Of a DNA stretch of 32,000 nt, positions 5,783 through 26,347 are shown piece by piece. Below the pieces are notes generated by a model that searched no databases, was not told the DNA's origin, and saw only the letters and a program-made list of their open reading frames with translations. Where the stretch lies: assembly GCF_000009965.1 (NCBI RefSeq), contig NC_006624.1, positions 1,440,001 through 1,472,000 on the forward strand, given 5' to 3'. How positions within the stretch are numbered: position 1 is the stretch's first letter; every line of letters begins with the position of its first letter. Source of the stretch: Thermococcus kodakarensis KOD1 (GTDB taxonomy: Archaea; Methanobacteriota_B; Thermococci; Thermococcales; Thermococcaceae). A program made the position numbers and the translations under genes.

Positions 5783-5838
5783 GGTAACCACCGAATACCA
5801 ATATACTTTCACATCCAAAACTAATATGGGGTATCAAT

Positions 5839-13489: not shown

Positions 13490-13765
13490 ATGGGACACAC
13501 GATTTATTATAATACTTCGATACAAAAATGGTGCGGATTCAAGAAATTCATGAGGAGAGTATGTTCTGGCGTTGGTTATCAGTTAAAAGAAGAGAAAGGA
13601 ACTCTCATAATATTTCCCCAGAAGAGGGGCGTCGAACCCCTCAGAATCAAAAAAGAGGGGGATGGCTTCGCTAAGACCAACCTAATCGAGCCAGAGCACT
13701 CGATATACCTGCTGATACTTCACTCGGTTTCGTCCTTTGGCTCGGTCTCCGTTTGGGAGGATTGA
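13490..13765 (+). CDS. Questionable hypothetical ORF (91 aa)
   Basis: ORF track only. AT-rich, no RBS noticed, and its 3' end overlaps the last operon gene by 46 nt (convergent). Confidence 0.3.
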   Translation: MGHTIYYNTSIQKWCGFKKFMRRVCSGVGYQLKEEKGTLIIFPQKRGVEPLRIKKEGDGFAKTNLIEPEHSIYLLILHSVSSFGSVSVWED

Positions 13766-14472
13766 GTGTCAAGGTAAACTTCAAGTATCCTAATGGGTCT
13801 GGAGCTCCTGAACACCCGCTCTTCCACGAGTAGCTTAACAACAACCCCAGGCTCGGCATCAGGAACCGCGGGCACCCAGTAATAGCCGGGTTTAACGTTG
13901 GCTGCCATGTCGTCGTGGACAAAGACCTTAACCAGGTCGTTCTTGACTTCCTCGACGACGCCGTAGGTGTAGTCCCTGCCGTAGCGAGACTTAAAGTAGT
14001 GACGGAAAAGGATAACTACAAGTCCAATAACGCCAAGGTATGCGTAGTACCAGTAGGCATCCAGAGATAGCCTCCTCAAAAGTACGTATCCCACATACGA
14101 AACAAAAGCTATGGTGCTAACCACAAGATAGAACACCCGATAAGCCTCAAAATCCAAAATGTAATCAGAGTACCGCACGAGAATAAATCTCAAAACTAGG
14201 AAATAGAAAGCGCTGAGAATTATTAGGGCTAGAAAGTAACCGAGATAAGCTACAACCACGCCGGTTACTAGGTATCCTAAGAATATCAACTGGAGCAGCA
14301 AACTAGTGACCTCATGGGGAGTCATCCACTGTTTTTGTATTGGCCACGACTTGGGTGGACGAGCTGAGGGGATTGGCTTGAGCATCATTTTCATGACTCC
14401 AGCAGTTCTTTTAGCAACTTTCTCTACTCTCTCCCCAATACTATAAAGGATATCTCCCACGTCCAATTTCAT
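13720..14472 (-). CDS. Operon gene 10: 4-TM membrane protein with a C-terminal soluble beta-rich domain and acidic tail
   Basis: ATG 14472 abuts the stop of the upstream gene (TGAATG). Four TM helices between residues ~55-160, then YGVVEEVKNDLVKVFVHDD...VVVKLLVEERV. Confidence 0.75.
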   Translation of the reverse strand: MKLDVGDILYSIGERVEKVAKRTAGVMKMMLKPIPSARPPKSWPIQKQWMTPHEVTSLLLQLIFLGYLVTGVVVAYLGYFLALIILSAFYFLVLRFILVRYSDYILDFEAYRVFYLVVSTIAFVSYVGYVLLRRLSLDAYWYYAYLGVIGLVVILFRHYFKSRYGRDYTYGVVEEVKNDLVKVFVHDDMAANVKPGYYWVPAVPDAEPGVVVKLLVEERVFRSSRPIRILEVYLDTQSSQTETEPKDETE

Positions 14473-15591
14473 TCACCCGGATGCATTATCAAATAGGGCC
14501 TTTTTAGTATAATTATCGAGTTGGAACCGTCGCTGTTCAGGACTAACAGGCGTTCCGGTAACATTACAGCTATACGGGGGAACTACGCATTTGAGGAAGT
14601 AGTAGTCAACACTGTCATAGTTATCTGGGATTGAGCCCCCAATGCTCTGAATAGCACCTAGAAGCGCTTTATCAATAGTTCGGTTAGGAACAATAAACGT
14701 TGTAAGGCCCACAGGAGTGGGCTTCATCCCAAGGGCATTTTGAAAAGTCTCAGCAAGATGAAGATAATAGCTGTGGTGGCCATTTGGATTCGTGTTCACA
14801 GTTCCTTCAAATCTCTCAAGCACAGTCGGATAGTATACTCCTGCAGAGGCATTGTCATAGAGTCCTACATAGCACCAGTTCAGGACAAGTTCGTTTATAT
14901 CCTCAGATTTGTTGACATTATAGTAACCATATTCTTCTCCAGGATACGGAATTCTACATGGTTCTATTATTCTTGTGTATAGACCGTTCAGCATTCTAAC
15001 AATGAACGGATCTTCAAAACCCTCAACACTTACTATCGAGTACACGTAACCGTTGGCGGGAAAATCGCCCGAGTACCGTACTCTACCTGAGCTATCAGTT
15101 ATTGTTATATTCCTTAACTTCACTCTAACAGCAACGTGGAACGAGTCAACAGGCCCGATAAGCATCTCCATGTGAGAATTAAAAAGTTCCTCCGGGGTAG
15201 ATGGCTCAATACTCATCCCCATTGAGGAGAGATAATTAACAAAATTAGAATACCAGGACTCCAGAGTGACACCCCCCATAGTAGGACTGATATTCCCACC
15301 TATTGTTCCATACTTCATAAGCTCTTCTAGGGCTTCAGATGCATTTGAGACAAAGCTGTGGTTGATAACGTACTCAGTGAGGGCGATGTATGCCCTCTTG
15401 AAGCTCAAATCAACGGCATTCTGAAGGTCGTCCCTTAGGGTGACAGTGCTGAAATACTGCCTCTCCATCAGACCCCTCTCAGCTTGATTCACAACGACGG
15501 CGCTGGAAATGCTCTCGTAAGTTGCGGCAAGGAGAAGGAGTGGTATCAGGAGGAGCAGCACGGTCATGTTTATTAGGTACCCCCTGCGCAT
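14473..15591 (-). CDS. Operon gene 9: secreted/anchored protein (372 aa) with a degenerate class III-like N-terminus MRRGYLINMTVLLLLIPLLLLAA
   Basis: I prefer ATG 15591, which shares one base with the upstream TGA (TGATG) and is preceded by GGAGGGGAGGC. Many N-x-S/T sequons. Confidence 0.75.
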   Translation of the reverse strand: MRRGYLINMTVLLLLIPLLLLAATYESISSAVVVNQAERGLMERQYFSTVTLRDDLQNAVDLSFKRAYIALTEYVINHSFVSNASEALEELMKYGTIGGNISPTMGGVTLESWYSNFVNYLSSMGMSIEPSTPEELFNSHMEMLIGPVDSFHVAVRVKLRNITITDSSGRVRYSGDFPANGYVYSIVSVEGFEDPFIVRMLNGLYTRIIEPCRIPYPGEEYGYYNVNKSEDINELVLNWCYVGLYDNASAGVYYPTVLERFEGTVNTNPNGHHSYYLHLAETFQNALGMKPTPVGLTTFIVPNRTIDKALLGAIQSIGGSIPDNYDSVDYYFLKCVVPPYSCNVTGTPVSPEQRRFQLDNYTKKALFDNASG

Positions 15592-18182
15592 CAGCCTCCC
15601 CTCCATATCCTCAGGGTAACTGTAATGGGCTCAATGGACGTTGGAACGTTCCTGATGCCAATGGCCTTCCCCTCAATCCCAACCAGCCGGATCCTTATGG
15701 GGTTCTTACTTCCACCCGGAATGTATCTACTGTCCCCGAGATGCTCCTTCCACAGCCTCTCGTCCGCCCCCAGCTGCAGGAAGAGGCGCACAATTGCATC
15801 GTCCAAGGCATATTTTGAGGGATCCAAATCCTCAACAGATTTTTTGAGGGGGGTATCCGAGGGCTTGCAGTTCCCGACTATGACGCTGTCTCTAGTGCCA
15901 TCACCGTTTCCAGTTAGGTCGTACCAGTATGTTAAGTTATACCCACAGGCATTGTCTTGGGCGTAGTAGGTGAAAACTTTTCCATAGGGGGCGTAGCCGT
16001 TGAGGAAATAGTGGACGATTGCGCGACTTACCGCGGGCCTGAAAGTATAATAGTCGTCTGTACTCTCGATTTTAAACTTATTAATTGAACCATTAACCAT
16101 TATATCCTTTGAGATTTTCGTGTATGCAACGCGGATCAGGTATACATCTAGGGGAAAACTGAGAAACTCCGTTTGATCTGGTCCTTCGCTTAGGGTTATA
16201 TTATTAGATGTGTCAATCAAACCAGGAGTATAGATTATTCCTGTCCATACATCAACGTACCAGGGGATGGCCTTTCCGGGGAGGTAGTAGCTGAAGTGCA
16301 TCTCGGTGTCATCTAAGGATTCCAAGTCGTGAGTCTCCTCAATTGGAATGTAAAATCTGCTCCCAGTAACCGTGGGATTGTATGATATTCTTATCCACGA
16401 GTAGGGGTACCCATAGAGTATCCTTTTGTTGTTCCATTCACGATGATAATCTTGCCCTGCATATAAAACTGAATCAAGGCCGTATTCGGCATCGAGCATG
16501 ATAACGAGGTTGAAATTCTTTCTGGAGAGGCTTTCCAGGGTAGTGTACCTTAGCAGTCCCCTCATTATGGTTGAATTGCTAATATAAAGGTTGTTTCCTA
16601 TGATGCTCGTGTTTTCATAGATTAAATTAAGGACAGTGCCGTTGGAGTAGTAAACCCTAACTTCATGTACCCCACTAAAGGTAAGGTTCATCTCAATCCC
16701 CGTTACATTACCCGGGACGAAGATGGAGTTAAGATAGTAGATACCAGTACCTTTGCTAGTTACATCGTAGAGTTTTATTAACCCAGGGTCATCGGCGTGC
16801 GGCGTTGAGGTTACGTAACCCAGATCAACCCAGCTACCGCTTCCCAGGCCAACTTCACGAGAGTCGTCATAACGCGAGACTTTCAAATACACTGTATTAG
16901 TTTCTGGCCATATTGAGGATAGGGGTATCGTAAGGTTACCTTCGGAGTTCTTCCAAGTCTTGTTGTTGAATTTGATTACATCAAAAACGTTCCCGTCTTG
17001 TCTAGTGTACACGCTGAGTACTCCATACCTTGGCCTAGTATCGGAGGGAAGGTCTATATCAAATTTAATATCAATGTTATTGTTATTGTAATAATCCTCA
17101 TCTCTACAGGAGTAGCCTGGTATAATTTCAGCATAAACACCCCTTATGATTCTCGCTGTTCTGGTATATGCCTTAGAAGACGAGATAACCCAGTGCCCCC
17201 CTAACCAACTCCGCTTCCATTTCCGAGTTATTTCCACATAGACTCCCGAGTTAAGAACGATACCCAGCTGGTCCCCACTGGGGTATTCAAACAAAATCTT
17301 AGTCACTTTATATTTCCTCGTATTGCCAACACTACTCAAGTATGAAAGATATAGCTTTAAACTATACCCATCTTTAGATAGAGTAACACCCCCTTTGTAT
17401 GATACACTCCACCCACCTAAATCGACGTTTAAGTCCACAGTACCACCACTGTACCTTCCCATAACCCGGAATCTTCCAGAAGAAACTTGAGTTGGTTTGC
17501 CTGAAGGCGTCTGGTACTGAATGGATAAAGAATTAACGGATAGGGTATAAAAATTGTAATCATGTCCACCCGGCCGGGGATTGGTGCAATACCCTCCTCC
17601 AGCAAGAACCCTCTGGATTCCGACGAGCTTTCTCTGCTCTGTCAGGACCTTCGTCAGATAAGCCTTCGCAACATAACCCCTAGGGCTCTGGTTGAAGAGA
17701 TAACCACTGACCATCATCGTAGCCGTTCCGACGTCACTGGCATTCTCATAGGAGTTGTCAAACGTGAGGAAGGGATCCGTGTAGTTGTTGATTATGAGCT
17801 GATATTTGTAGCCCCCAGCTAGATCCCTCAATATTTCACCGAGTATTAAACTTGCGTATCCTTTAAACTCAGGATGCTTGACTGAAAGTGCCCAATATGT
17901 GGCCGCTATCTGGAGGGGAGGCATCTTTGGATCAACGTACGTTAGATTTAGGGTTCCATTGGAAATCCACGTATTGATAAGCGAGGGAGAGACGAGCTGG
18001 TCTAGGGGAACAGTCCTCAATGTTTGGAGGATTCCTTCTGCAAGCTGTTTGTTTTCGGCACGCAACTGAGTAGCGTAAATACTAGAAGAGTTCTCCGTTA
18101 CTGCAACTACGCTAACCAAAACGAGAGAAACCAGTACAAGGGAAAGAATAGCGTCAAGAGTGAACACAAAACCCCTTCTCAT
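15591..18182 (-). CDS. Operon gene 8: giant pilin-like protein (863 aa) with class III signal peptide MRRG|FVFTLDAILSLVLVSLVLVSVVAV
   Basis: ATG 18182 lies 1 nt after the upstream TGA and is preceded by GGGGTGAG. At least 16 N-x-S/T sequons counted by eye. N-terminal module is paralogous to gene 7. Confidence 0.85.
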   Translation of the reverse strand: MRRGFVFTLDAILSLVLVSLVLVSVVAVTENSSSIYATQLRAENKQLAEGILQTLRTVPLDQLVSPSLINTWISNGTLNLTYVDPKMPPLQIAATYWALSVKHPEFKGYASLILGEILRDLAGGYKYQLIINNYTDPFLTFDNSYENASDVGTATMMVSGYLFNQSPRGYVAKAYLTKVLTEQRKLVGIQRVLAGGGYCTNPRPGGHDYNFYTLSVNSLSIQYQTPSGKPTQVSSGRFRVMGRYSGGTVDLNVDLGGWSVSYKGGVTLSKDGYSLKLYLSYLSSVGNTRKYKVTKILFEYPSGDQLGIVLNSGVYVEITRKWKRSWLGGHWVISSSKAYTRTARIIRGVYAEIIPGYSCRDEDYYNNNNIDIKFDIDLPSDTRPRYGVLSVYTRQDGNVFDVIKFNNKTWKNSEGNLTIPLSSIWPETNTVYLKVSRYDDSREVGLGSGSWVDLGYVTSTPHADDPGLIKLYDVTSKGTGIYYLNSIFVPGNVTGIEMNLTFSGVHEVRVYYSNGTVLNLIYENTSIIGNNLYISNSTIMRGLLRYTTLESLSRKNFNLVIMLDAEYGLDSVLYAGQDYHREWNNKRILYGYPYSWIRISYNPTVTGSRFYIPIEETHDLESLDDTEMHFSYYLPGKAIPWYVDVWTGIIYTPGLIDTSNNITLSEGPDQTEFLSFPLDVYLIRVAYTKISKDIMVNGSINKFKIESTDDYYTFRPAVSRAIVHYFLNGYAPYGKVFTYYAQDNACGYNLTYWYDLTGNGDGTRDSVIVGNCKPSDTPLKKSVEDLDPSKYALDDAIVRLFLQLGADERLWKEHLGDSRYIPGGSKNPIRIRLVGIEGKAIGIRNVPTSIEPITVTLRIWRGG

Positions 18183-18183
18183 A

Positions 18184-20673
18184 TCACTCACCCCATACCC
18201 AGAGTTTTAAAATGGCCACACGATAAATCGGCTGCATAACGGCACCAATATTACCAACGTCCTCAATCTTGACCTGTGGGAACGTGTTATGATACACCCA
18301 CAGTGAGAACGTTATACCCTCACCCATCTTAGATGAGGATGGTACAAAGCACTTCATGGGAACGATAAGGCTATTTCCTGTCCTCTGCACTACACAGTCT
18401 TGAGGGGCTTCAGTATAGTTGAACTTCGGGATAAGGGTCAAGAGTCCATAGTACAATTTAGAGTTATTTCTAACAACGACCATCACAGTATACCCAACGT
18501 ATTCCCCGGTACTGAACGAGGAGATAAGGGTGAAATTACCGTCGGAATCCGGAACAGTCACATTGAGTGCCCCGAGAGGCATCCATGAAAACATTCCCTC
18601 ATAAAGCAAAACTTTTTTATTGCCCGCAACGGTATAGCTCTGGTTGTACGTCCTATATGACACCCGAACAGTCCTCTCCGAATGCTGGATCCACGTTGAG
18701 TTTTCCATAGATTGTTCAATTAAGTTTTCATTGCTCACAAAAAATCCGCCCACCATAGAGATATTAACCCAAGCAGATTTTTCTGGAGAAAACTCATAAG
18801 TTACGTTAACGCTAGTAACGTTAATACTAACGGAGCTACCCTCCCCAGAGGCTCTACATTCGGGATACTGGAATTCCGGAGCGGGGGGCATAAGCAGGGA
18901 GGGGAGATCGAAGTCAAATGCCTCGTCCTTATCAGGGGGAAGAGATAACGAGCCTGTGCCGTTAATCTGGATGTCAAAGTTCCAGTTAACGGACATCATT
19001 TCAAATTCTATTTGATAAAACCATCCTTCCCAAAAATCATCCCAGTAATAATACCCAAGGAGAATCTCGTTGTTATAAATCAATACGTCTCTGTGCTTCC
19101 ATCTTCCTGTCATTAAGTTGTACCTGTATCCATCAAAAGAATAGCTACTCTGGCTTGTCCCAGTCCCATTCATTGCGTACCATGTGTCGCCTTTGGCATA
19201 GAGCCATCCATTTACGTAAAAGGGATTCCCAGACTCAAGCCCGATAGGAGGCTGAGTATCGTAGTACTCGTAAACATTTCCCTTAACTATCAAAGTCCCC
19301 CTTACAGTGAGTTTGCCCGAAACATATAGGTTGCCATAAACGATAAGTTTACTGTTCCAATCTATGGTAAGATCTCCATCAACATATAAGTTACCATAAA
19401 CAACCAATCTTCTGCCCGAATCAATTGTCAAGTCGCCATTAACGTGAAGATCTCTGTGGAATATATTAGTTCCCGCTACCTTCATATCCCCATTGATAAA
19501 CGCGTCCCCGTATACATCAACAGTAGTACTAGGATTCTGGGAAAAGTCCCCATTAACGTAGAGCTCGTCTTCAACCTTTAAGTTCCCAGATGGCAAACTC
19601 AATGAGCCATTGACAAAGGCCGTTCCTCCCACGTAGACTCTAAGACTTGACTGTCCATTAAAGTTTCCATTTACAAAAAGGTTTCCCCCAACCCACAGCT
19701 TCCCACTGTTTCCAACAGTGGCATCGCCACCGACATAGAGGTCATTAGAAACGTTGACGTTGCCGTTGCTCTGAACATCCAGACTACCGAGAGAGTAAAG
19801 ACTCTCATTAACCGTTAAGTATCCGCTTGATCGAACAGTCGTATCACCATACACATAAAGGTTTTTACCAAAAGTTGCATGTCCATTTGATCTAATATCA
19901 AGAGCTCCGCCAATATAGGAGTCATCTTTTATATTGGTAGCATAACCACTGCTTCCTATATGGGCATCTCCCGTAACGTAGATAGCAGAAGTCGATAGCC
20001 ATCCAGCCGAACCAACATCGAGACTGCCATTAACAGCCAAATATTGGCTTATATTAACCTTAAAGTTGTCCCCAATCTTAGTATTTCCATATACACACAC
20101 GTAATATGGATTGTAATAACTACCAAACGAAACTCCCCTATGAGTAAAATCAAACTCCCCTTGTGAACACTGGGAAGCGTTTATCAGGACAGGTGTGTCC
20201 GAGTGGTTTCCAAGCTCACCCACGCTACATGCCGTCAGTAGTTCAGCACCTGAAACAGGGGATATTGTATAGTTATAAACTAGTTGGACAGATTGATTTG
20301 GCATGGATACCATCAACTTAAAATTATATCCGTTGGAGAGATCCCACAGAGCGCTCTGAAGAGAGGGATTTCCAGCTTTCACCCCCTCAACAAGGGCCAT
20401 TACTTTTGAGTAATCCAAATTGTTACCCCTAAGCGACCTTAAACCAGGAACAATTACCGAAGCTATGTTCTTCTCCCAGTCTTCAGGTTCCCCAGGACTT
20501 CTCGTTAAAACATCCAGCATGTTCTCGGCTATGTTCGCCCTCTCGTACCAGCCAACGAGGGAAGTTATCTCGTTCTTAAGGTTCTCAGAGGTCGCTGAAA
20601 CAGTCCCAACCACCATTATTATTATGACGAGTGACAGCATCGCATCCAGGGAAAAAATCTGTCCCCTCCTCAC
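18184..20673 (-). CDS. Operon gene 7: giant pilin-like protein (829 aa) with class III signal peptide MRRG|QIFSLDAMLSLVIIIMVVGTV and a central beta-solenoid
   Basis: GTG 20673 overlaps the upstream stop as GTGA and is preceded by GGGGGGAG. About 20 N-x-S/T sequons by eye. Confidence 0.85.
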   Translation of the reverse strand: MRRGQIFSLDAMLSLVIIIMVVGTVSATSENLKNEITSLVGWYERANIAENMLDVLTRSPGEPEDWEKNIASVIVPGLRSLRGNNLDYSKVMALVEGVKAGNPSLQSALWDLSNGYNFKLMVSMPNQSVQLVYNYTISPVSGAELLTACSVGELGNHSDTPVLINASQCSQGEFDFTHRGVSFGSYYNPYYVCVYGNTKIGDNFKVNISQYLAVNGSLDVGSAGWLSTSAIYVTGDAHIGSSGYATNIKDDSYIGGALDIRSNGHATFGKNLYVYGDTTVRSSGYLTVNESLYSLGSLDVQSNGNVNVSNDLYVGGDATVGNSGKLWVGGNLFVNGNFNGQSSLRVYVGGTAFVNGSLSLPSGNLKVEDELYVNGDFSQNPSTTVDVYGDAFINGDMKVAGTNIFHRDLHVNGDLTIDSGRRLVVYGNLYVDGDLTIDWNSKLIVYGNLYVSGKLTVRGTLIVKGNVYEYYDTQPPIGLESGNPFYVNGWLYAKGDTWYAMNGTGTSQSSYSFDGYRYNLMTGRWKHRDVLIYNNEILLGYYYWDDFWEGWFYQIEFEMMSVNWNFDIQINGTGSLSLPPDKDEAFDFDLPSLLMPPAPEFQYPECRASGEGSSVSINVTSVNVTYEFSPEKSAWVNISMVGGFFVSNENLIEQSMENSTWIQHSERTVRVSYRTYNQSYTVAGNKKVLLYEGMFSWMPLGALNVTVPDSDGNFTLISSFSTGEYVGYTVMVVVRNNSKLYYGLLTLIPKFNYTEAPQDCVVQRTGNSLIVPMKCFVPSSSKMGEGITFSLWVYHNTFPQVKIEDVGNIGAVMQPIYRVAILKLWVWGE
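19270..20100 (-). repeat. Coding tandem repeats of ~20 residues (consensus h-Y-V-x-G-D-h-x-h-x-x-x-G-x-L-x-V), ~13 units, predicted beta-helix/solenoid
   Basis: Residues ~197-473 of gene 7, e.g. NGDLTIDSGRRLVVYGNLYV / DGDLTIDWNSKLIVYGNLYV. The two 60-nt units 19321-19380 and 19381-19440 match 42/60 at DNA level by hand alignment. Confidence 0.8.
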
Positions 20674-21173
20674 GGGAACTCCCCCCACTCGTCGTTCACG
20701 CTCACGTTCAGCACAACTTCAATACCGCCGTAGTACAGCTTACCGTCCCTCTCGCCGAAGCCCCTGATTTCCTTCAGGGACTCAACCATGGCCTCGCCGA
20801 CGGCGCCCACGAGTTCTTTATCTACCGTTGAGTTACTCTCGCCGAGGGTTTTAAACTTAACCAAGACTGTCATACTGTCTTCCGTTTCATTCTGGACTTT
20901 CAGACCCTCGAACACAAACCTTCCAGATAGGTAATCATAGTAGGCGGTGATATTATCATTAAGGCAGTCAAACTCAGTCCTGTTCTCGGCTATCACTCCA
21001 ACGCTGACGTACGATGCGACGTCCGAGGCGACCGACCTAATTCCCGCCAGGACAGAAACTTCGGAGTTGTTCTGCATATAGGAAGGGAGAATAACGACTA
21101 CCCCCATGAAGATAACGGCCATTATGAACAGCATTTCAAGGGCCGTCTGGCCCCTACTTCTTAACGCGGACAT
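20670..21173 (-). CDS. Operon gene 6: small pilin-like protein (167 aa), class III signal peptide MSALRSRG|QTALEMLFIMAVIFMGVVVIL
   Basis: ATG 21173 is preceded by GGGTG (6-nt spacer). Overlaps the upstream gene by 20 nt. Confidence 0.8.
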   Translation of the reverse strand: MSALRSRGQTALEMLFIMAVIFMGVVVILPSYMQNNSEVSVLAGIRSVASDVASYVSVGVIAENRTEFDCLNDNITAYYDYLSGRFVFEGLKVQNETEDSMTVLVKFKTLGESNSTVDKELVGAVGEAMVESLKEIRGFGERDGKLYYGGIEVVLNVSVNDEWGEFP

Positions 21174-21597
21174 CAATGGCACCCGCCGTTTGGTTGTAGG
21201 TGGCGTAAACCCAGAGATCTGGGGACGTCGAGTTCAGCGTAACATTGGTAGTCGCCACGAGGGGAACGGGGAGGTTCTGATAGACCCTGTAGTGTTCACC
21301 CCCTATTACCGCCGAGACATCTAGGCGTCCAGATGTGGAGTTGAGCACGACGGTTATTTTATCGCCAGCCCTAAGGTTCATCGGCACAGTTTTTTTAACG
21401 GAAAAGCCAGGCCCGGAAGAGTAAACTTTAGTCACTGTGTCCCTGAGATCAATCGCAAAGACCTTGAGCTTTGACGTCTTGTCCGTGAGCTCCGCACTCT
21501 CGACCTGGCGGGACGCAAGGGAAACTAGGCTGAGCACGGTGAGGGTAATCAGGGTGAAGGCAAAGATGACGTCAATGCTCAGCTGTCCGCGTCCCAT
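21154..21597 (-). CDS. Operon gene 5: small pilin-like protein (147 aa), class III signal peptide MGRG|QLSIDVIFAFTLITLTVLSLVSL
   Basis: ATG 21597 shares one base with the upstream TGA and has GGTGA 6 nt upstream. GTG 21600 is an alternative start. Confidence 0.8.
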   Translation of the reverse strand: MGRGQLSIDVIFAFTLITLTVLSLVSLASRQVESAELTDKTSKLKVFAIDLRDTVTKVYSSGPGFSVKKTVPMNLRAGDKITVVLNSTSGRLDVSAVIGGEHYRVYQNLPVPLVATTNVTLNSTSPDLWVYATYNQTAGAIDVRVKK

Positions 21598-22262
21598 CAC
21601 GACTCACCTGGGTTGATGTAGATGTGTATCTCCCCAGCGGTCTCGTTATAGGTCCACATCTCGTCTTGATGCGGATTCCACCCCGGAGTCCACTCCACAA
21701 CTATCTTCAGGTAGGAAGGCAACGTCTCGGGGGGAATTACAAGACCATAGACAGTTGTGGAGGTGCTCGACCCATCAAGCTTAATTTGAGTGCTGTTCCC
21801 AAAGGTGGAGTTCCAAACGGTAGAGTTCCCGAGGAGGTTGACGGCGTATAAGGATCTGCTCCAGAATACGCTCTTATTGTCGCCACTCAGAGCAGCGTTT
21901 GTTGTTCCCGTTCTGTTTATGATCGTAATATAAACCCCATAGTCACTTCCATAGGGCCCATAGGTGATGAATATTCCAGGATCAGTAACGCTCCACGCTC
22001 TCTCAAGATAGGAGGGGTTCCTAAGATAAACCAGCTTGACGTAGGATGTAGCCTTGGATCCCGGGCCCTGGGCATAGACCTGGCTGATCGTGTTCGAGAT
22101 CGTATTTGCAAGGTTTTTCTCCTCAAGGGCCGTCTGGATTTTGAGAGTTTCGACCGATGGAGTACCCTCGCTAAACGACGTGTTCCGTATGGAGTACAGG
22201 AGTAGTATCGTAAACAGCCCGAAGATTATTATGAACTCAAGCGATATCTGACCCCTTCTCAC
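21597..22262 (-). CDS. Operon gene 4: pilin-like protein (221 aa), class III signal peptide MRRG|QISLEFIIIFGLFTILLLYSI
   Basis: The track ORF starts at TTG 22289. GTG 22262 is preceded by GGAGGGG with a 7-nt spacer and gives the same MRRGQ leader as its neighbours. Confidence 0.8.
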   Translation of the reverse strand: MRRGQISLEFIIIFGLFTILLLYSIRNTSFSEGTPSVETLKIQTALEEKNLANTISNTISQVYAQGPGSKATSYVKLVYLRNPSYLERAWSVTDPGIFITYGPYGSDYGVYITIINRTGTTNAALSGDNKSVFWSRSLYAVNLLGNSTVWNSTFGNSTQIKLDGSSTSTTVYGLVIPPETLPSYLKIVVEWTPGWNPHQDEMWTYNETAGEIHIYINPGES

Positions 22263-22304
22263 AGATGTTCCCCTCCGTTCACTACCCAATACGGCACCCT
22301 CTAT

Positions 22305-22919
22305 TTAATCATTGCCCTCCACTTCTACAACAAAAGTACCAGAGCGCTGGTTAAACGTTTTGACGCCAAAATAATCGTTTCCAAAGAGCTTAAAGCGATA
22401 GTTCTCAGGCCTTAGCCCATGCCTTCTCACGAGTTCGGCCATCTCATCTATGAAGAGCTGAGTCAGTTCGTAGTAGCTGAGATCCATTCTATCCCTAATC
22501 CACCATCTAAGGAAAAGAACCAGCGGAGCAATTGACAGAACTGGGAGTATGACGAGAGACCCGGATAACACCAAAAGGCCTGTTGAGACCGCAATGACAG
22601 CACCATATAGGGCATAGGCAGTTTTTTCGGCCTTCTTCAAAGTCTTTACCTTCTTCACTTTAGCCTCCCAGATGTCAAGAAGGGCAGGATTGTAGAAGTC
22701 AAAGGCCGTGTGTCTCTTCCCTTTCGCTATTCTCTGCCTGATTAGATCATCCCAGTCATCCGTGTAGTATATGACTTCCCCACGAAGCCTGGCCCGCTCG
22801 GCATCTATGGAGGAGATTATCCTGATGATATCCTCCGCACTCTCGTGGGCTATGTGGGAATAGACGGACTTCTCATCGAGGTCGAGGGCAGCTTCAACAG
22901 AGTCCTTTACTATGCTCAT
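22305..22919 (-). CDS. Operon gene 3: membrane protein (204 aa) with a cytoplasmic N-domain, a central TM hairpin and a C-domain
   Basis: ATGA overlap (22916-22919) with the tubulin-like gene. Hydrophobic hairpin AYALYGAVIAVSTGLLVLSGSLVILPVLSIAPLVLFL. No family recognised. Confidence 0.75.
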   Translation of the reverse strand: MSIVKDSVEAALDLDEKSVYSHIAHESAEDIIRIISSIDAERARLRGEVIYYTDDWDDLIRQRIAKGKRHTAFDFYNPALLDIWEAKVKKVKTLKKAEKTAYALYGAVIAVSTGLLVLSGSLVILPVLSIAPLVLFLRWWIRDRMDLSYYELTQLFIDEMAELVRRHGLRPENYRFKLFGNDYFGVKTFNQRSGTFVVEVEGND

Positions 22920-24094
22920 CGGGATACCTCCCGATACTCTGCAAATCCCTCAGGATCGTCTGAGCCTGTTGCCTCCAAACTTGGGTATACATCATCAAAG
23001 TCGGGAAGGCCAGTGAGCAGTTCCTTCTTCTTTGTTTCGGCCTCGCTCTTTGCCTGCATGAAAGACCTTGCGTATTCCTTAGCCGTCCTGACGATGTTCT
23101 CAATGCTCTTGCTCTCGTATATTCCACTCAAGAGCGTGACGACCTCGACGTCCCTTTCCCGAGGATCCGGGTAGAACCCCCTGAATATCTGCTTGCCCCT
23201 TATTTTCGATGTGAGATAATCCAGTGCCTCAAAGATATCGCTGGCCTTCAAAACCTCTGGCGGTCCGTGGATGGCGACAAGACCGTAGAGGGCAGATTCA
23301 ATGTTCGCATCCAGGTAGAGCCCCTCGCTTTCAAAGGACTTGATGATGAGCCTGGAGAGGTTCTTTACCTTGGAAGCGTCTGCTTTGGCATAACCTACGG
23401 TTGCAAAGCTACCAAATGCCTTCAGAACGAACTTCAGGTCGCTCGCGTCGAGGGTCTGCTCACCGGGCACGTCCACGAGAGCAAGCAGGGAGGCTATTCT
23501 CTCGACAATGGTGTAGTTTATCTTCTCGTAGGCACTGCTTATATCGTCCCCGCTCTCCTTGAGCTTGTTGTTGTCAATGGCTATGATTGAGTCCGCTACC
23601 TTGGAGAGCTTGTCTATCGTTATAGCCGCGTTTATTGTTGGCCTTATCCCTTCCTCCTTTAGTGGGAGCGCCCCGATGGCAACGACGAGAGAGTCCGGGT
23701 ATTCCTCCTTGAGGGCCTCTGCCAAAACCGGAGTTCCCCCTGCACCAGTCCCGCCGCCGAAGCCGAAGGTAAGGAAAAAGATGTCCACGTCTTCGTAGCC
23801 AACGATGGAACCTATCTTCCTCATCACCAGCGGCAGGTCGCGCTTCATGGCCTCTCTTCCAAGCAGAGGGTTGGCATTAACTCCCTTGCCCCCAGTTATG
23901 CTCTCCCCTATGAGTATCCTCCTGTCGTGGGGAATGTGCTTGAGGTATTCCAGGTCTCCCCTGGATGTGTTCAGCGCGATTGTATCAAAGTCAACCAGCG
24001 CAAACAGATCAGCTATCTTCGTCCCGCACTGTCCAACTCCTATTATCAAGGCCCTCAAGACGTTATCACCCCTCGAAAAGTATTTTGACTTCAT
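22916..24094 (-). CDS. Operon gene 2: tubulin/FtsZ-superfamily GTPase (392 aa), divergent third paralog type (FtsZ3 / non-canonical CetZ-like)
   Basis: Nucleotide-binding loops IIGVGQCGTKIAD (nt ~24023-24034) and FGFGGGTGAGGTP (tubulin signature, nt ~23738-23758), then IAIDNNKL and an acidic C-terminal tail. Start uncertain: ATG 24094, or TTG 13 codons downstream preceded by GGTGA. Confidence 0.9.
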   Translation of the reverse strand: MKSKYFSRGDNVLRALIIGVGQCGTKIADLFALVDFDTIALNTSRGDLEYLKHIPHDRRILIGESITGGKGVNANPLLGREAMKRDLPLVMRKIGSIVGYEDVDIFFLTFGFGGGTGAGGTPVLAEALKEEYPDSLVVAIGALPLKEEGIRPTINAAITIDKLSKVADSIIAIDNNKLKESGDDISSAYEKINYTIVERIASLLALVDVPGEQTLDASDLKFVLKAFGSFATVGYAKADASKVKNLSRLIIKSFESEGLYLDANIESALYGLVAIHGPPEVLKASDIFEALDYLTSKIRGKQIFRGFYPDPRERDVEVVTLLSGIYESKSIENIVRTAKEYARSFMQAKSEAETKKKELLTGLPDFDDVYPSLEATGSDDPEGFAEYREVSR

Positions 24095-26303
24095 CAGGAG
24101 TTATTGCGCCGTCTCCATTGAGATCCTTAACGCTGAACACCACGTAGGCACCGTGCAGATACTTGATCATCGTTGGGTTAACGATCAGGTCAATTGCCGG
24201 GAGAACTTCCTTCTCGGCCAAGAGCACTAGAACATAACCGTCCTGGGTTCTTCCAGGGATTATGGCTACTAGATTCTCCTTTGAGTACTTTTGACCATTT
24301 ATCTCGACGTAGTTGCCCGCAACAGAGATATTGACATAGGGGTTGTAGACGCTTGTGTCAAAGCTACCGAATGGACCAACAAAGATGTGATTGCCCGTGA
24401 GTTCTCTGCCCATGTCGCCCTCTTTGAGGAGCGGTACGCCGCCAAAGGACTCAATTATTCCGCTGAGTTTCTCCGCCGCGGAGGCATAATCCGGGCTGTA
24501 ATGAATGTACCAAGTTCCGCTGCCCAGCTTGCTAACCACGGACGAGATAAGGACAGGCGGCAGGAAGCCCGACTCCATGGCAAACTTGAATGCCAAAGCC
24601 TTTTCTACTATCCTGTTGCTGTTCTTTATCCCCTGGAGCAACGTACTCGCCATATCAAAGTAGTTCAGGTCATATCCATGCTCTATGAGCAGTTCGAGCG
24701 CTCTAACAGTGTACTCAATCGACGGAGAAGCCGTTGAAACCTGGCCGAGGATGTTTACGCTCTTCTTATAGTGACCCCAAAAGCCATCCTCAAGCCTCTG
24801 AGCGAGGAGCCAGTCGAGGTGGGGCTTAAGTTTGGCCTCGTCCACCGTGTCTGAAAGAGCCTCAAGGACTAGCAGGGTAGTCGGTACGTCAGGGGTACTC
24901 ATGATGGTGAACGGAGTGAACGGATAGTTTATGAGCAGTCCCCAGCCGCCGTCAGTAAGGGAGAGCAGCCAGCTAGCGGGAGCATTAACCCCAGTAATGT
25001 TGAATGCCTTGAGTAAGTTTATTCCCATCGCCGTCTGGAGGGGCTGTGGTATTGAGAAGAACCCCCTCCAAGCGAACTCTGAGTACCTGTATTCGTTTAT
25101 GAAATCAATGACGGATTGCCTCTCCTCGGGAGGCATATCGGAATACCTGGCGAGGATTAAGGCAGTATAGTAAAAGTCCTGGGTGAGCATACCCTCTGTC
25201 TCAACCTCTTCCATAGCGGACTTCAGATGATTTTCTGCCCATGCCGTTGCCTTGTCAATTGCAACCTGAGGCTTGGGAGTGCAAAGGCTCAAAAATTCGA
25301 GGGCATAATAGGTTGGCTTGGCCCGGGAATCTTCTCCGGGGGTGTAACCCCAGCCACCATCAGGGTTTTGTAGCGAGAGAATTTCATCACACATCTGGGA
25401 AACTGTCGGATATTCCTCACTGGAGATGACGTCTGAGAGAGAAGCAAAGGCCATGACCGCAAAGGAGGTAGGAGTGACGGAATCCAGCTCAGGGAGAGGC
25501 CAAATTGGCTCGGTGAGGACGAAGGTCTCGTTATGGGAGCCGAGGCTCTCCAGTATCACCAGAGAACGTGGAAGTTCTGAGGTCATGTTTTCAGTATACA
25601 GCGTGAGAGCGTACGTGAGCATGGCCCTTTCAGTGGGTTTTAGCTCTCCTGAAAGCATGGCGTAGGCAGTTTCAATAAGAGCAGAAACGTTGGCGTAGCC
25701 GATATAGTGGTACGCAATAAGCTTAAGAGCGACCATCTTGGGGGATGTCTCATTAATGGACTCCAGATAAGAGACGGCCTTGGATACAGTCGAATCCTCA
25801 ATGGTGTATCCGTTTGCACCCAACCCCCATAGCGCGACAACCGTTAAGTAAGGCTCCGCAGGGGTTTTCGAACCGTATCCCCATCCCTGACCATTGAAGG
25901 AGTCTAAAAGGTATCTGACACCAGATTTAATTTCACCGGAAACGTCAATGGTCTTAAGGGGGAGATCTTTCACAGCCCCCAGGGCCGCCAGTGCGTATCC
26001 CGTGTCGAGGGGGTTACTGATTTCATTCGGGTAATAACCCCACCCACCATCGGAGTTTTGAGCGTTTTTAAGGTAATCAACAAGCTCCAGAATAGAGCTT
26101 TCAACCGTGGACTGATTCTCAACTTTTCCATAGAGCGAAGCCATGGCCATCAAGAGCAGAGACGAGTCCCTAACGTTATTGACGTAACCCTGGGCACTAG
26201 AAAGGTAGAGCACCGACTCGTCCAACATTGAGGCGCTTGCAACGGGGGCAGTAATAATCATCACAGTAAGGATTACAAGCAGCACCCTCGAATTTGCACA
26301 CAT
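24066..26303 (-). CDS. Operon gene 1: Sec-secreted alpha/alpha-toroid protein with prenyltransferase/terpenoid-cyclase-like repeats and a C-terminal DxNxDG calcium-loop motif
   Basis: ATG 26303 is preceded by GGTGGTGAAGG and gives MCANSRVLLVILTVMIITAPVASA|S (Sec-type, AxA site). Repeats: SDGGWGYYPNE, GQGWGYGSK, PDGGWGYTPGE, TDGGWGLL, EDGFWGHY. C-terminus KDLNGDGAITPDEV (nt 24090-24125). Confidence 0.85.
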   Translation of the reverse strand: MCANSRVLLVILTVMIITAPVASASMLDESVLYLSSAQGYVNNVRDSSLLLMAMASLYGKVENQSTVESSILELVDYLKNAQNSDGGWGYYPNEISNPLDTGYALAALGAVKDLPLKTIDVSGEIKSGVRYLLDSFNGQGWGYGSKTPAEPYLTVVALWGLGANGYTIEDSTVSKAVSYLESINETSPKMVALKLIAYHYIGYANVSALIETAYAMLSGELKPTERAMLTYALTLYTENMTSELPRSLVILESLGSHNETFVLTEPIWPLPELDSVTPTSFAVMAFASLSDVISSEEYPTVSQMCDEILSLQNPDGGWGYTPGEDSRAKPTYYALEFLSLCTPKPQVAIDKATAWAENHLKSAMEEVETEGMLTQDFYYTALILARYSDMPPEERQSVIDFINEYRYSEFAWRGFFSIPQPLQTAMGINLLKAFNITGVNAPASWLLSLTDGGWGLLINYPFTPFTIMSTPDVPTTLLVLEALSDTVDEAKLKPHLDWLLAQRLEDGFWGHYKKSVNILGQVSTASPSIEYTVRALELLIEHGYDLNYFDMASTLLQGIKNSNRIVEKALAFKFAMESGFLPPVLISSVVSKLGSGTWYIHYSPDYASAAEKLSGIIESFGGVPLLKEGDMGRELTGNHIFVGPFGSFDTSVYNPYVNISVAGNYVEINGQKYSKENLVAIIPGRTQDGYVLVLLAEKEVLPAIDLIVNPTMIKYLHGAYVVFSVKDLNGDGAITPDEVKILFEG

Positions 26304-26336
26304 ACCTTCACCACCTAAGGGAAACGTTGTCATGAG

Positions 26337-26347
26337 AATAAATAAAA
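26337..26347 (-). promoter_or_regulatory. TATA-like box TTTTATTTATT (minus strand): candidate promoter of the ten-gene operon
   Basis: Centred ~39 nt upstream of ATG 26303. The usual archaeal TATA-to-TSS spacing puts the TSS near 26317, downstream of the track's ATG 26333, which supports the shorter start. Confidence 0.5.

Follow-up and report, generated by a model that had tools for sequence, protein, structure and literature searches.

The ten open reading frames (ORFs) TK1661-TK1670 of Thermococcus kodakarensis KOD1 join a tubulin-superfamily protein of the CetZ family to six pilin-like proteins, and we suggest that they are, quite probably, the Thermococcales version of the accessory operon (minor pilins and adhesins) of a clade-1, or system 1, Epd-type type IV pilus. 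To this operon three genes specific to the Thermococcales, encoding a secreted toroid protein, CetZ and a protein with two predicted transmembrane (TM) segments, would have been fused at the 5′ end. The genes are located in a 32-kb stretch of the chromosome NC_006624.1 (hereafter the window, meaning the whole stretch; window position x is genome position 1,440,000 + x). All ten are on the minus strand and were found where a preliminary description of this DNA, made from the sequence itself, had placed them. Coordinates are window positions unless genome positions are named.

The linkage between CetZ and pilin genes is already known, and we do not describe a new kind of system. The linkage of CetZ, a "squalene cyclase" and pilins in Thermococci was reported in a survey that also labelled arCOG03821, 03822 and 05786-05790 as clade-1 components (Makarova 2016). 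All analyzed Thermococcales cetZ regions were found to be pili-associated, and it was suggested that CetZ may scaffold type IV systems (Brown & Duggin 2023), which answers the doubt of the preliminary description as to whether such a linkage had been published. In a 2026 preprint the Thermococcales are assigned to system 1 / Epd. A literature search found no experiments on TK1661-TK1670. The 2016 survey itself gives credit for the linkage to Szabo 2007. What is sharpened here is that the CetZ module is an order-specific addition of three genes to an Epd-type operon, that it stays with the pilus genes despite rearrangement, and that it brings along a putative membrane partner of its own and a conserved tail at the CetZ C-terminus. 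The locus could reveal the role of CetZ outside the Halobacteria and tell us if competence pili of archaea depend on a scaffold made by the cytoskeleton, the operon being that of a genetically tractable, naturally competent hyperthermophile.

Conservation of the linkage in the Thermococcales

A scan of genome contigs with CetZ reached relatives at least 82% identical and gave 27 Thermococcus loci; the Pyrococcus and Palaeococcus contexts were obtained by exact-protein look-ups. In the 27 loci the order from TK1670 to TK1661 is kept wherever the locus is long enough, with identities to KOD1 of 82-92% for CetZ, 53-66% for TK1668, 28-57% for the pilin-like proteins and ~30% for the toroid protein. 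Palaeococcus pacificus has the identical ten-gene order and the same upstream genes for TYW1, a methyltransferase and a flavin reductase, and the ten-gene order is also identical in a Pyrococcus abyssi-type scaffold. The comparison of gene order that the preliminary description had proposed thus shows conservation in Thermococcus, Pyrococcus and Palaeococcus. Together with the gene junctions described below, this conserved linkage supports its view of a tightly coupled unit that joins a tubulin-superfamily GTPase to pilin-like proteins.

The preliminary description had also raised the question of whether the tubulin paralogue ever occurs without the pilin-like genes. Such a lineage does exist (L036/L025): the module of toroid, CetZ and 2-TM genes is present, the downstream pilin genes were lost, and acidic non-pilin genes and an ABC transporter follow. 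In L036 (4244-12528), however, a 57-amino acid Flp-like pilin (RRA↓QGALEYLF, the arrow marking the predicted cleavage site) and a 376-amino acid EppA-type peptidase are encoded 2-5 kb upstream of the CetZ module, on the same strand. Since the CetZ module stays with pilus genes through this rearrangement, a functional link between CetZ and the pilus is supported.

In P. furiosus COM1 (L004, CP003685 1,014,495-1,035,202) only the distal four genes were seen, namely homologues of TK1664, TK1663, TK1662 (with DUF2341) and the DUF2101 gene, and the genes immediately upstream are unrelated. This arrangement suggests a strain-specific rearrangement.

CetZ and its candidate membrane tether

TK1669 (BAD85858 by exact-sequence look-up; 22916..24058) is a 380-amino acid protein when read from TTG 24058, with an alternative start at ATG 24094, and its UniProt name is "Tubulin-like protein CetZ". 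It matches the Pfam families Tubulin (PF00091; 8.9e-30, 104.8 bits, cut-off 33) and CetZ_C (PF21011; 9e-17, 61.5 bits, cut-off 21.6) and carries the GTPase signature GGGTGAGG (residue 113) and a GQCG motif (residue 19). Its top PDB matches are CetZ1 4B46 (1.8e-40) and CetZ2 4B45, both of H. volcanii, and CetZ 3ZID of Methanosaeta; the best FtsZ match comes after them, at 7.9e-28, and the NCBIfam ftsZ equivalog gives 123 bits, under its cut-off of 295. The GTPase that was first assigned to the tubulin/FtsZ superfamily can therefore be identified, by its sequence, as a member of the CetZ family.

At the C-terminus of Thermococcales CetZ proteins (22916-23020, ~35 residues) a helical linker rich in charges leads to the conserved peptide GLPDFDD[VIL]Y, which is not found in the distant CetZ P0242. 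This peptide resembles the partner-binding C-terminal peptide of FtsZ. The anchors SepF, FtsA and ZipA bind that conserved FtsZ peptide.

TK1668 (22305..22919; 204 amino acids, arCOG05790) has one hydrophobic stretch of 43 residues (100-142). Its orthologues differ in the TM segment and are near-invariant in the N- and C-terminal domains, and the protein is predicted to be a TM hairpin with both conserved domains in the cytoplasm. An exhaustive search of 1.84 billion representatives found the family in only 7 clusters, all at least 50% identical, and neither a Pfam match nor a PDB profile match was found for TK1668. A base-by-base check shows that its ATG overlaps the CetZ stop codon in the ATGA at 22916-22919. 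Because of this coupling, the near-invariant domains predicted to be cytoplasmic, the restricted family and the conserved CetZ tail, we infer that TK1668 is the partner of CetZ and tethers it to the membrane. The pair is reminiscent of FtsZ and its anchors both in the charged linker with a short conserved C-terminal peptide and in the small membrane protein, encoded by an adjoining, translationally coupled gene, that has near-invariant domains on the predicted cytoplasmic side. Unlike the FtsZ anchors, TK1668 has no detectable similarity to SepF, FtsA or ZipA, and its contact with CetZ is a prediction.

The pilin-like proteins

All six proteins TK1662-TK1667 have a short basic N-terminus, a [KR]-[GA] cleavage motif and a single hydrophobic segment of ~20 residues, and these features are kept across ~25 loci, in agreement with their earlier description as pilin-like proteins that bear class III signal peptides. 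Three of them are small. TK1667 (21597..22262; 221 amino acids) has the predicted EppA-type signal peptide RRG↓QISLEF, conserved as [KR][GA]↓Q[IV]SLEF in 24 loci; TK1666 (21154..21597; 147 amino acids) has GRG↓QLSID, conserved as ↓Q.S[LI]D and followed by the hydrophobic segment; and TK1665 (20670..21173; 167 amino acids) has SRG↓QTALE, conserved as ↓QT[AS].E. Two are large surface proteins: TK1664 (18184..20673; 829 amino acids, BAD85853 by exact-sequence look-up) with RRG↓QIFSLD, conserved as ↓Q[ILV][FL]S.DA, and TK1663 (15591..18182; 863 amino acids, BAD85852) with RRG↓FVFTLDA, which has Phe at +1 and is conserved as G↓F[IV][FL]TLDA. The last, TK1662 (14473..15591; 372 amino acids), has RRG↓YLIN, conserved as [GA]↓[FY]. 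TK1667 matches the Pfam family Class_IIIsignal (PF04021) with 32.3 bits (8.9e-8), above the cut-off of 23.7; TK1665 is below it with 15.1 bits and the other four gave no match. TK1665 also has weak ComGC/ComGE-like matches at its N-terminus, all below threshold.

The residues after the cleavage motif point to the peptidase that may process these proteins. EppA, the second euryarchaeal prepilin peptidase, requires Gln at +1 and usually has an acidic residue at +5 in its substrates. Gln is found at +1 in TK1664-TK1667, with Glu or Asp at +5 or +6, and TK1662 and TK1663 have Tyr and Phe at +1. By this motif four of the six class III signal peptides (TK1664-TK1667) are of the EppA type, and the proteins that carry them are predicted EppA substrates.

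N-glycosylation sequons number 18-35 per 1000 residues in TK1662-TK1667 (30 N-X-S/T sequons per 1000 amino acids in TK1667; 16 sequons in TK1663), compared with 0-8 in CetZ, TK1668 and TK1661. The exposed parts of the pilin-like proteins are modular and are swapped between species. TK1664, which has a Bactofilin-type repeat match (8e-8), has orthologues of 465-610 amino acids, and its additional length in the KOD1 lineage is a ~480-residue β-helix insertion at residues ~140-620; TK1663 has a ~240-residue insertion when compared with its Palaeococcus and Pyrococcus orthologues. TK1662 is a short form of a protein of ~800-1200 amino acids, with a middle part of ~415 residues, containing DUF2341, lost in KOD1. 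DUF2341 (PilY-like) is found in the TK1662 orthologues of P. furiosus, P. pacificus and the P. abyssi-type scaffold, and a Pfam search gave no match to it in any protein of the KOD1 operon. Remodelling of the exposed domains of TK1664, TK1663 and TK1662 was also seen at another locus (L026).

Location of the candidate assembly machinery

Neither a T2SSE-type ATPase, nor a platform protein, nor an A24 peptidase is encoded in the window, and in the 27 scanned Thermococcus loci no secretion ATPase, platform protein or peptidase was seen closer than 10 kb to the CetZ gene. The preliminary description was thus correct locally, and what it saw in one genome extends to these relatives. From this it had concluded that the machinery is missing, with a cytoskeletal GTPase in its place, and it had assumed that the ATPase and platform genes are normally part of an Epd-type locus; both statements have to be given up. 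KOD1 is listed with a clade-1 secretion ATPase (Makarova 2016). A shared intein is noted in the literature for the arCOG01819 ATPase family, and in the KOD1 intein table TK1853 is entered under the name KlbA, as an ATPase of type II/IV secretion systems whose intein has 523 amino acids. TK1853 (genome positions 1,662,060-1,665,656) is ~196 kb from the operon, so that the genome-wide search for motor genes that had been proposed does lead to a clade-1 ATPase; by literature assignment, rather than by sequence, it corresponds to a CpaF/TadA-type enzyme. TK1852 (351 amino acids) and TK1851 (305 amino acids) are tightly packed directly downstream of it on the same strand.

A similar dispersal is found in M. 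maripaludis JJ, where the epd pilin operon is at 754-762 kb and epdJKL is at 967-970 kb, ~205 kb apart. Since TK1853 is ~196 kb off and the M. maripaludis Epd genes are split alike, a locally absent motor is normal for an Epd-type system.

EppA-like long A24 peptidases were found in >100 Thermococcales protein clusters, at loci separate from the CetZ operon. In P. pacificus (L038 9818-11131) and Thermococcus AM4 (L039 9821-11221) a Flp-like pilin of 54-57 amino acids (RRA↓Q.A.EYLFMLAAALIL) is encoded with EppA directly after it, and the P. pacificus pair is far from the CetZ operon. Two ASCH-domain genes are located upstream of the pair in both P. pacificus and AM4. In public records several of the EppA homologues wrongly bear the annotation 'transposase'.

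Comparison with the Epd and Tad systems

The likeness to the M. maripaludis Epd system extends beyond the position of the motor genes. Both systems have several class III signal-peptide proteins with Gln at +1, and both show the order of small pilins, larger proteins, a DUF2341 protein (the domain being lost in KOD1) and membrane protein(s). In both the ATPase belongs to arCOG01819 and is encoded with two platform genes ~200 kb away, those of KOD1 being candidates, and a small major pilin, in Thermococcales the candidate Flp-like one, is encoded outside the operon. Unlike the methanococcal operon, that of the Thermococcales has no internal eppA, three additional 5′ genes (toroid, CetZ and 2-TM) and a DUF2101 gene at its end; KOD1 has furthermore lost DUF2341 and gained the insertions in TK1663 and TK1664. 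A further difference is that the methanococcal system uses a separately encoded MinD/ParA-like ATPase for transformation.

The bacterial Tad/Flp pilus consists of the CpaF/TadA ATPase, TadB/TadC, the Flp pilin, the TadV peptidase and the pseudopilins TadE/F, and it is positioned by the ParA/MinD-like TadZ. The Thermococcales system is similar in its CpaF-family ATPase, two candidate platform paralogues, several minor pilins and a Flp-like pilin of very small size whose motif is of the G/A↓xxxxEY type (in Thermococcales, RRA↓QTALEYLF). It differs in the archaeal envelope, the long A24 peptidase of the EppA type, the very large pilin-like adhesins and the cytoskeletal CetZ module, for which we know of no counterpart in Tad loci.

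A possible mechanism and its alternatives

Based on these data we can suggest the following mechanism. EppA would cleave the pilin-like proteins, which once processed may make up a complex that primes a thin pilus or sits at its tip, and the shaft would be built from the ~55-amino acid Flp-like major pilin. TK1853, together with two platform proteins of the TadC type, would drive assembly. TK1668 would bind the conserved C-terminal peptide of CetZ and so tether CetZ filaments to the membrane; these filaments may scaffold or position the assembly site but would not be the power source, and the toroid protein TK1670 would act outside the membrane. A scaffolding role for CetZ is supported by two precedents: in H. 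volcanii, CetZ1 has an influence on the polar assembly of archaellum machinery, and a separately encoded MinD/ParA-like ATPase is needed for pilus-dependent transformation in M. maripaludis. Natural transformation of M. maripaludis requires Epd pili. As T. kodakarensis is also naturally competent, a role of the pilus in competence is plausible by analogy, and the link to DNA uptake that the preliminary description had raised gains indirect support.

Several points weigh against this reading. In KOD1 itself the Flp-like pilin was not located, and an EppA was found neither among the 120 EppA-like clusters listed nor in two cluster look-ups of its nearest relatives. TK1851 and TK1852 fit two TadC-like platform proteins, a call made from size and position only. 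The homology of the operon proteins to the M. maripaludis Epd proteins comes from arCOG/COG assignments in the literature, not from alignment, and no literature report of an Epd-type pilus in T. kodakarensis was found. Read density along the operon is uneven (see below), so that co-transcription of the CetZ gene and the pilin genes is no more than putative. The interaction between CetZ and TK1668 and the scaffolding role are what we infer, and the single-sequence AlphaFold2 model of TK1668, with a predicted local distance difference test (pLDDT) score of 56, is too poor for a fold search.

A more far-reaching version of the same idea is that CetZ and TK1668 form a membrane-tethered scaffold that physically organizes the Epd-type pilus machine, that this pilus is the DNA-uptake organelle of T. 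kodakarensis, and that the scaffold may belong to the polar cytoplasmic cone that cryo-electron tomography has shown in this species and that awaits explanation. We consider this combination unlikely and offer it as speculation; if true, a cytoskeleton of the tubulin superfamily would for the first time be seen in direct structural coupling to a type IV filament.

One alternative is that CetZ is a mere neighbor, so that TK1669 does a general job in cell shape or polar organization, like Haloferax CetZ1, and shares a promoter with the pilus genes without contacting the pilus machine. This would fit with the literature, which gives TK1669 as the only CetZ in Thermococcales, and with read densities that differ from the CetZ end of the operon to its pilin end. 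However, the linkage is kept in Thermococcus, Pyrococcus and Palaeococcus and was re-created beside EppA and a Flp-like pilin in L036, of the lineage that lost the downstream pilin genes. An independent association is also found in Halobacteria, where a CetZ-family gene adjoins a type IV filament cluster, cetZ2 with pilB2/pilC2 (subclade 4F) in H. volcanii. The halobacterial cluster includes an ATPase and platform genes of its own and resembles a mobile insertion beside cetZ2, whereas the cetZ of Thermococcales is a translationally coupled member of the operon and the sole CetZ of its genome. We therefore think that a role of CetZ unrelated to the pilus is doubtful, although there is some chance of it.

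Another hypothesis is that no filament is formed, and that the pilin-like N-termini only anchor and export large glycosylated proteins which, together with the toroid protein, enter an envelope or surface layer (S-layer)-associated, bindosome-like complex, with CetZ organizing the envelope from inside. Two to three of the pilin-like proteins are indeed very large and have swappable exposed domains, as seen in the β-helix insertion and in the gain and loss of DUF2341. TK1662 and TK1663 do not have Gln at +1, a Sec-secreted toroid protein is part of the unit, and the literature lists related large proteins as predicted S-layer proteins of the branch-1 pili system. Yet, the layout parallels that of the M. 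maripaludis epd operon, whose tested genes are all needed for pili or transformation, and a Flp-like major pilin and EppA co-occur in Thermococcales; we regard a purely envelope function as distinctly unlikely compared with an accessory operon of an Epd-type pilus.

A fiber or pseudopilus assembled without a PilB/FlaI-type ATPase, a platform protein and a prepilin peptidase, to which the tubulin-like GTPase and the small membrane protein would give the force for assembly, positioning or retraction, is very improbable: such an idea would fit the lack of all three in the window and around CetZ in the scanned loci and the promoter-proximal, translationally coupled CetZ and 2-TM genes, but KOD1 has the clade-1 ATPase TK1853 and two adjacent platform-sized genes, the ATPase and platform genes of the characterized Epd system are ~205 kb from their pilin operon, the signal peptides with Gln at +1 fit the specificity of EppA, whose homologues are widespread in the order, and to our knowledge no tubulin-family protein extracts pilins from the membrane.

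Gene junctions and transcription

The sequence is compatible with a single operon. Besides the ATGA between CetZ and TK1668, the junctions are a 42-nucleotide (nt) gap between TK1668 and TK1667 (from TAA 22305 to GTG 22262), a TGATG at 21597 (TK1667/TK1666), a 20-nt overlap at 21154-21173 (TK1666/TK1665), a GTGA at 20670-20673 (TK1665/TK1664), a 1-nt spacer at 18183 (TK1664/TK1663), a TGATG at 15591 (TK1663/TK1662) and a TGAATG at 14472/14473 (TK1662/TK1661). All of these had been read correctly to the base in the preliminary description. Its first junction is different: the 29-nt overlap (24066-24094) that it gave between TK1670 and TK1669 requires CetZ to start at ATG 24094. The KOD1 annotation has a CetZ of 380 amino acids and every aligned orthologue begins with MRALIIG, which leads to TTG 24058; we therefore place a 7-nt spacer at this junction. 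A Shine-Dalgarno motif of the GGTG/GGAGG type precedes each of the ten starts.

Promoters and terminators were sought in a scan for T-runs and TATA-like motifs. Upstream of the operon it gave a single strong TATA-like match, TTTTATTTATT at 26347-26337 (minus strand), as had been proposed, and it is preceded by a purine-rich stretch resembling a B recognition element (BRE); a transcription start would be expected near 26316. The 755-amino acid RefSeq model of TK1670 begins at ATG 26333, just 4 nt past the TATA-like element and thus probably upstream of the transcription start. For this reason ATG 26303, which gives the 745-amino acid protein of the original annotation and has the ribosome-binding site GGTGGTGAAGG, is the plausible start. 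No strong internal TATA element was seen in the motif scan of the operon; a weak TTTTAAAA is located 30 nt upstream of TK1663. The T6 run at 13649..13654 (minus strand), 66 nt past the stop codon of TK1661, is a candidate archaeal terminator, but is suggestive only, and T5-T6 runs are also found inside the operon.

Per-gene read counts from published differential RNA sequencing (dRNA-seq) show low-level expression of all ten genes in every library. In exponential phase the read density of TK1664, the operon maximum, is ~10x that of TK1669/TK1670, and that of TK1667 is ~4x. Such unevenness may point to promoters inside the operon, to processing or to segments of different stability.

The toroid protein and the DUF2101 protein

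With the domains of the proteins determined, the order that had been proposed (Sec-secreted toroid, tubulin GTPase, 2-TM protein, six pilin-like proteins, 4-TM protein) was borne out by Pfam, hydrophobicity and AlphaFold2.

TK1670 (24066..26303; BAD85859 by exact-sequence look-up, arCOG03396) is an α/α-toroid protein of 745 amino acids that is annotated as 'squalene cyclase'. It matches the Pfam families SQHop_cyclase_C (7.6e-13) and Prenyltrans (8.1e-10), both above cut-offs, and has an N-terminal hydrophobic signal segment for Sec and four DGGWG repeats. The DxDD motif of class II cyclases is not found in TK1670, and the NCBIfam cyclase equivalogs all score far under their cut-offs. A terpene cyclase was rejected because of the missing DxDD motif, the secretion and these low equivalog scores, and TK1670 is probably a binding scaffold that shares only its fold with the cyclases and is not an enzyme.

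TK1661 (13720..14472; BAD85850 by exact-sequence look-up, arCOG05786) is a DUF2101 membrane protein (Pfam, 7.9e-97) whose homologue is last in the operon at every locus, and a word-indexed search with DUF2101 gave matches from Thermococcales only. The AlphaFold2 model (pLDDT 91.6) has four TM helices and a C-terminal five-stranded β-barrel, and the basic residues after the fourth TM helix suggest that the modelled barrel would be cytoplasmic. Foldseek comparison with the PDB gave weak matches only, to oligonucleotide/oligosaccharide-binding (OB) folds (IF1, CusF and S1; best E 6e-3). A membrane-associated OB-fold protein is found among the transformation genes of M. maripaludis.

Neighboring genes

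The operon is flanked by housekeeping genes, with MarC and asparaginase on one side and TYW1, a methyltransferase, a flavin reductase and subtilisin on the other. Convergent to the operon is TK1660, an ORF of 91 amino acids on the plus strand (13490-13765), which shares the last 46 nt of TK1661 and has no Pfam match. Full-length homologues of TK1660 (33-64% identity) are located in the same convergent position at 11 other Thermococcales loci, including those of Palaeococcus (L035) and of a Pyrococcus-type scaffold (L040), and TK1660 is an eleventh conserved neighbor.

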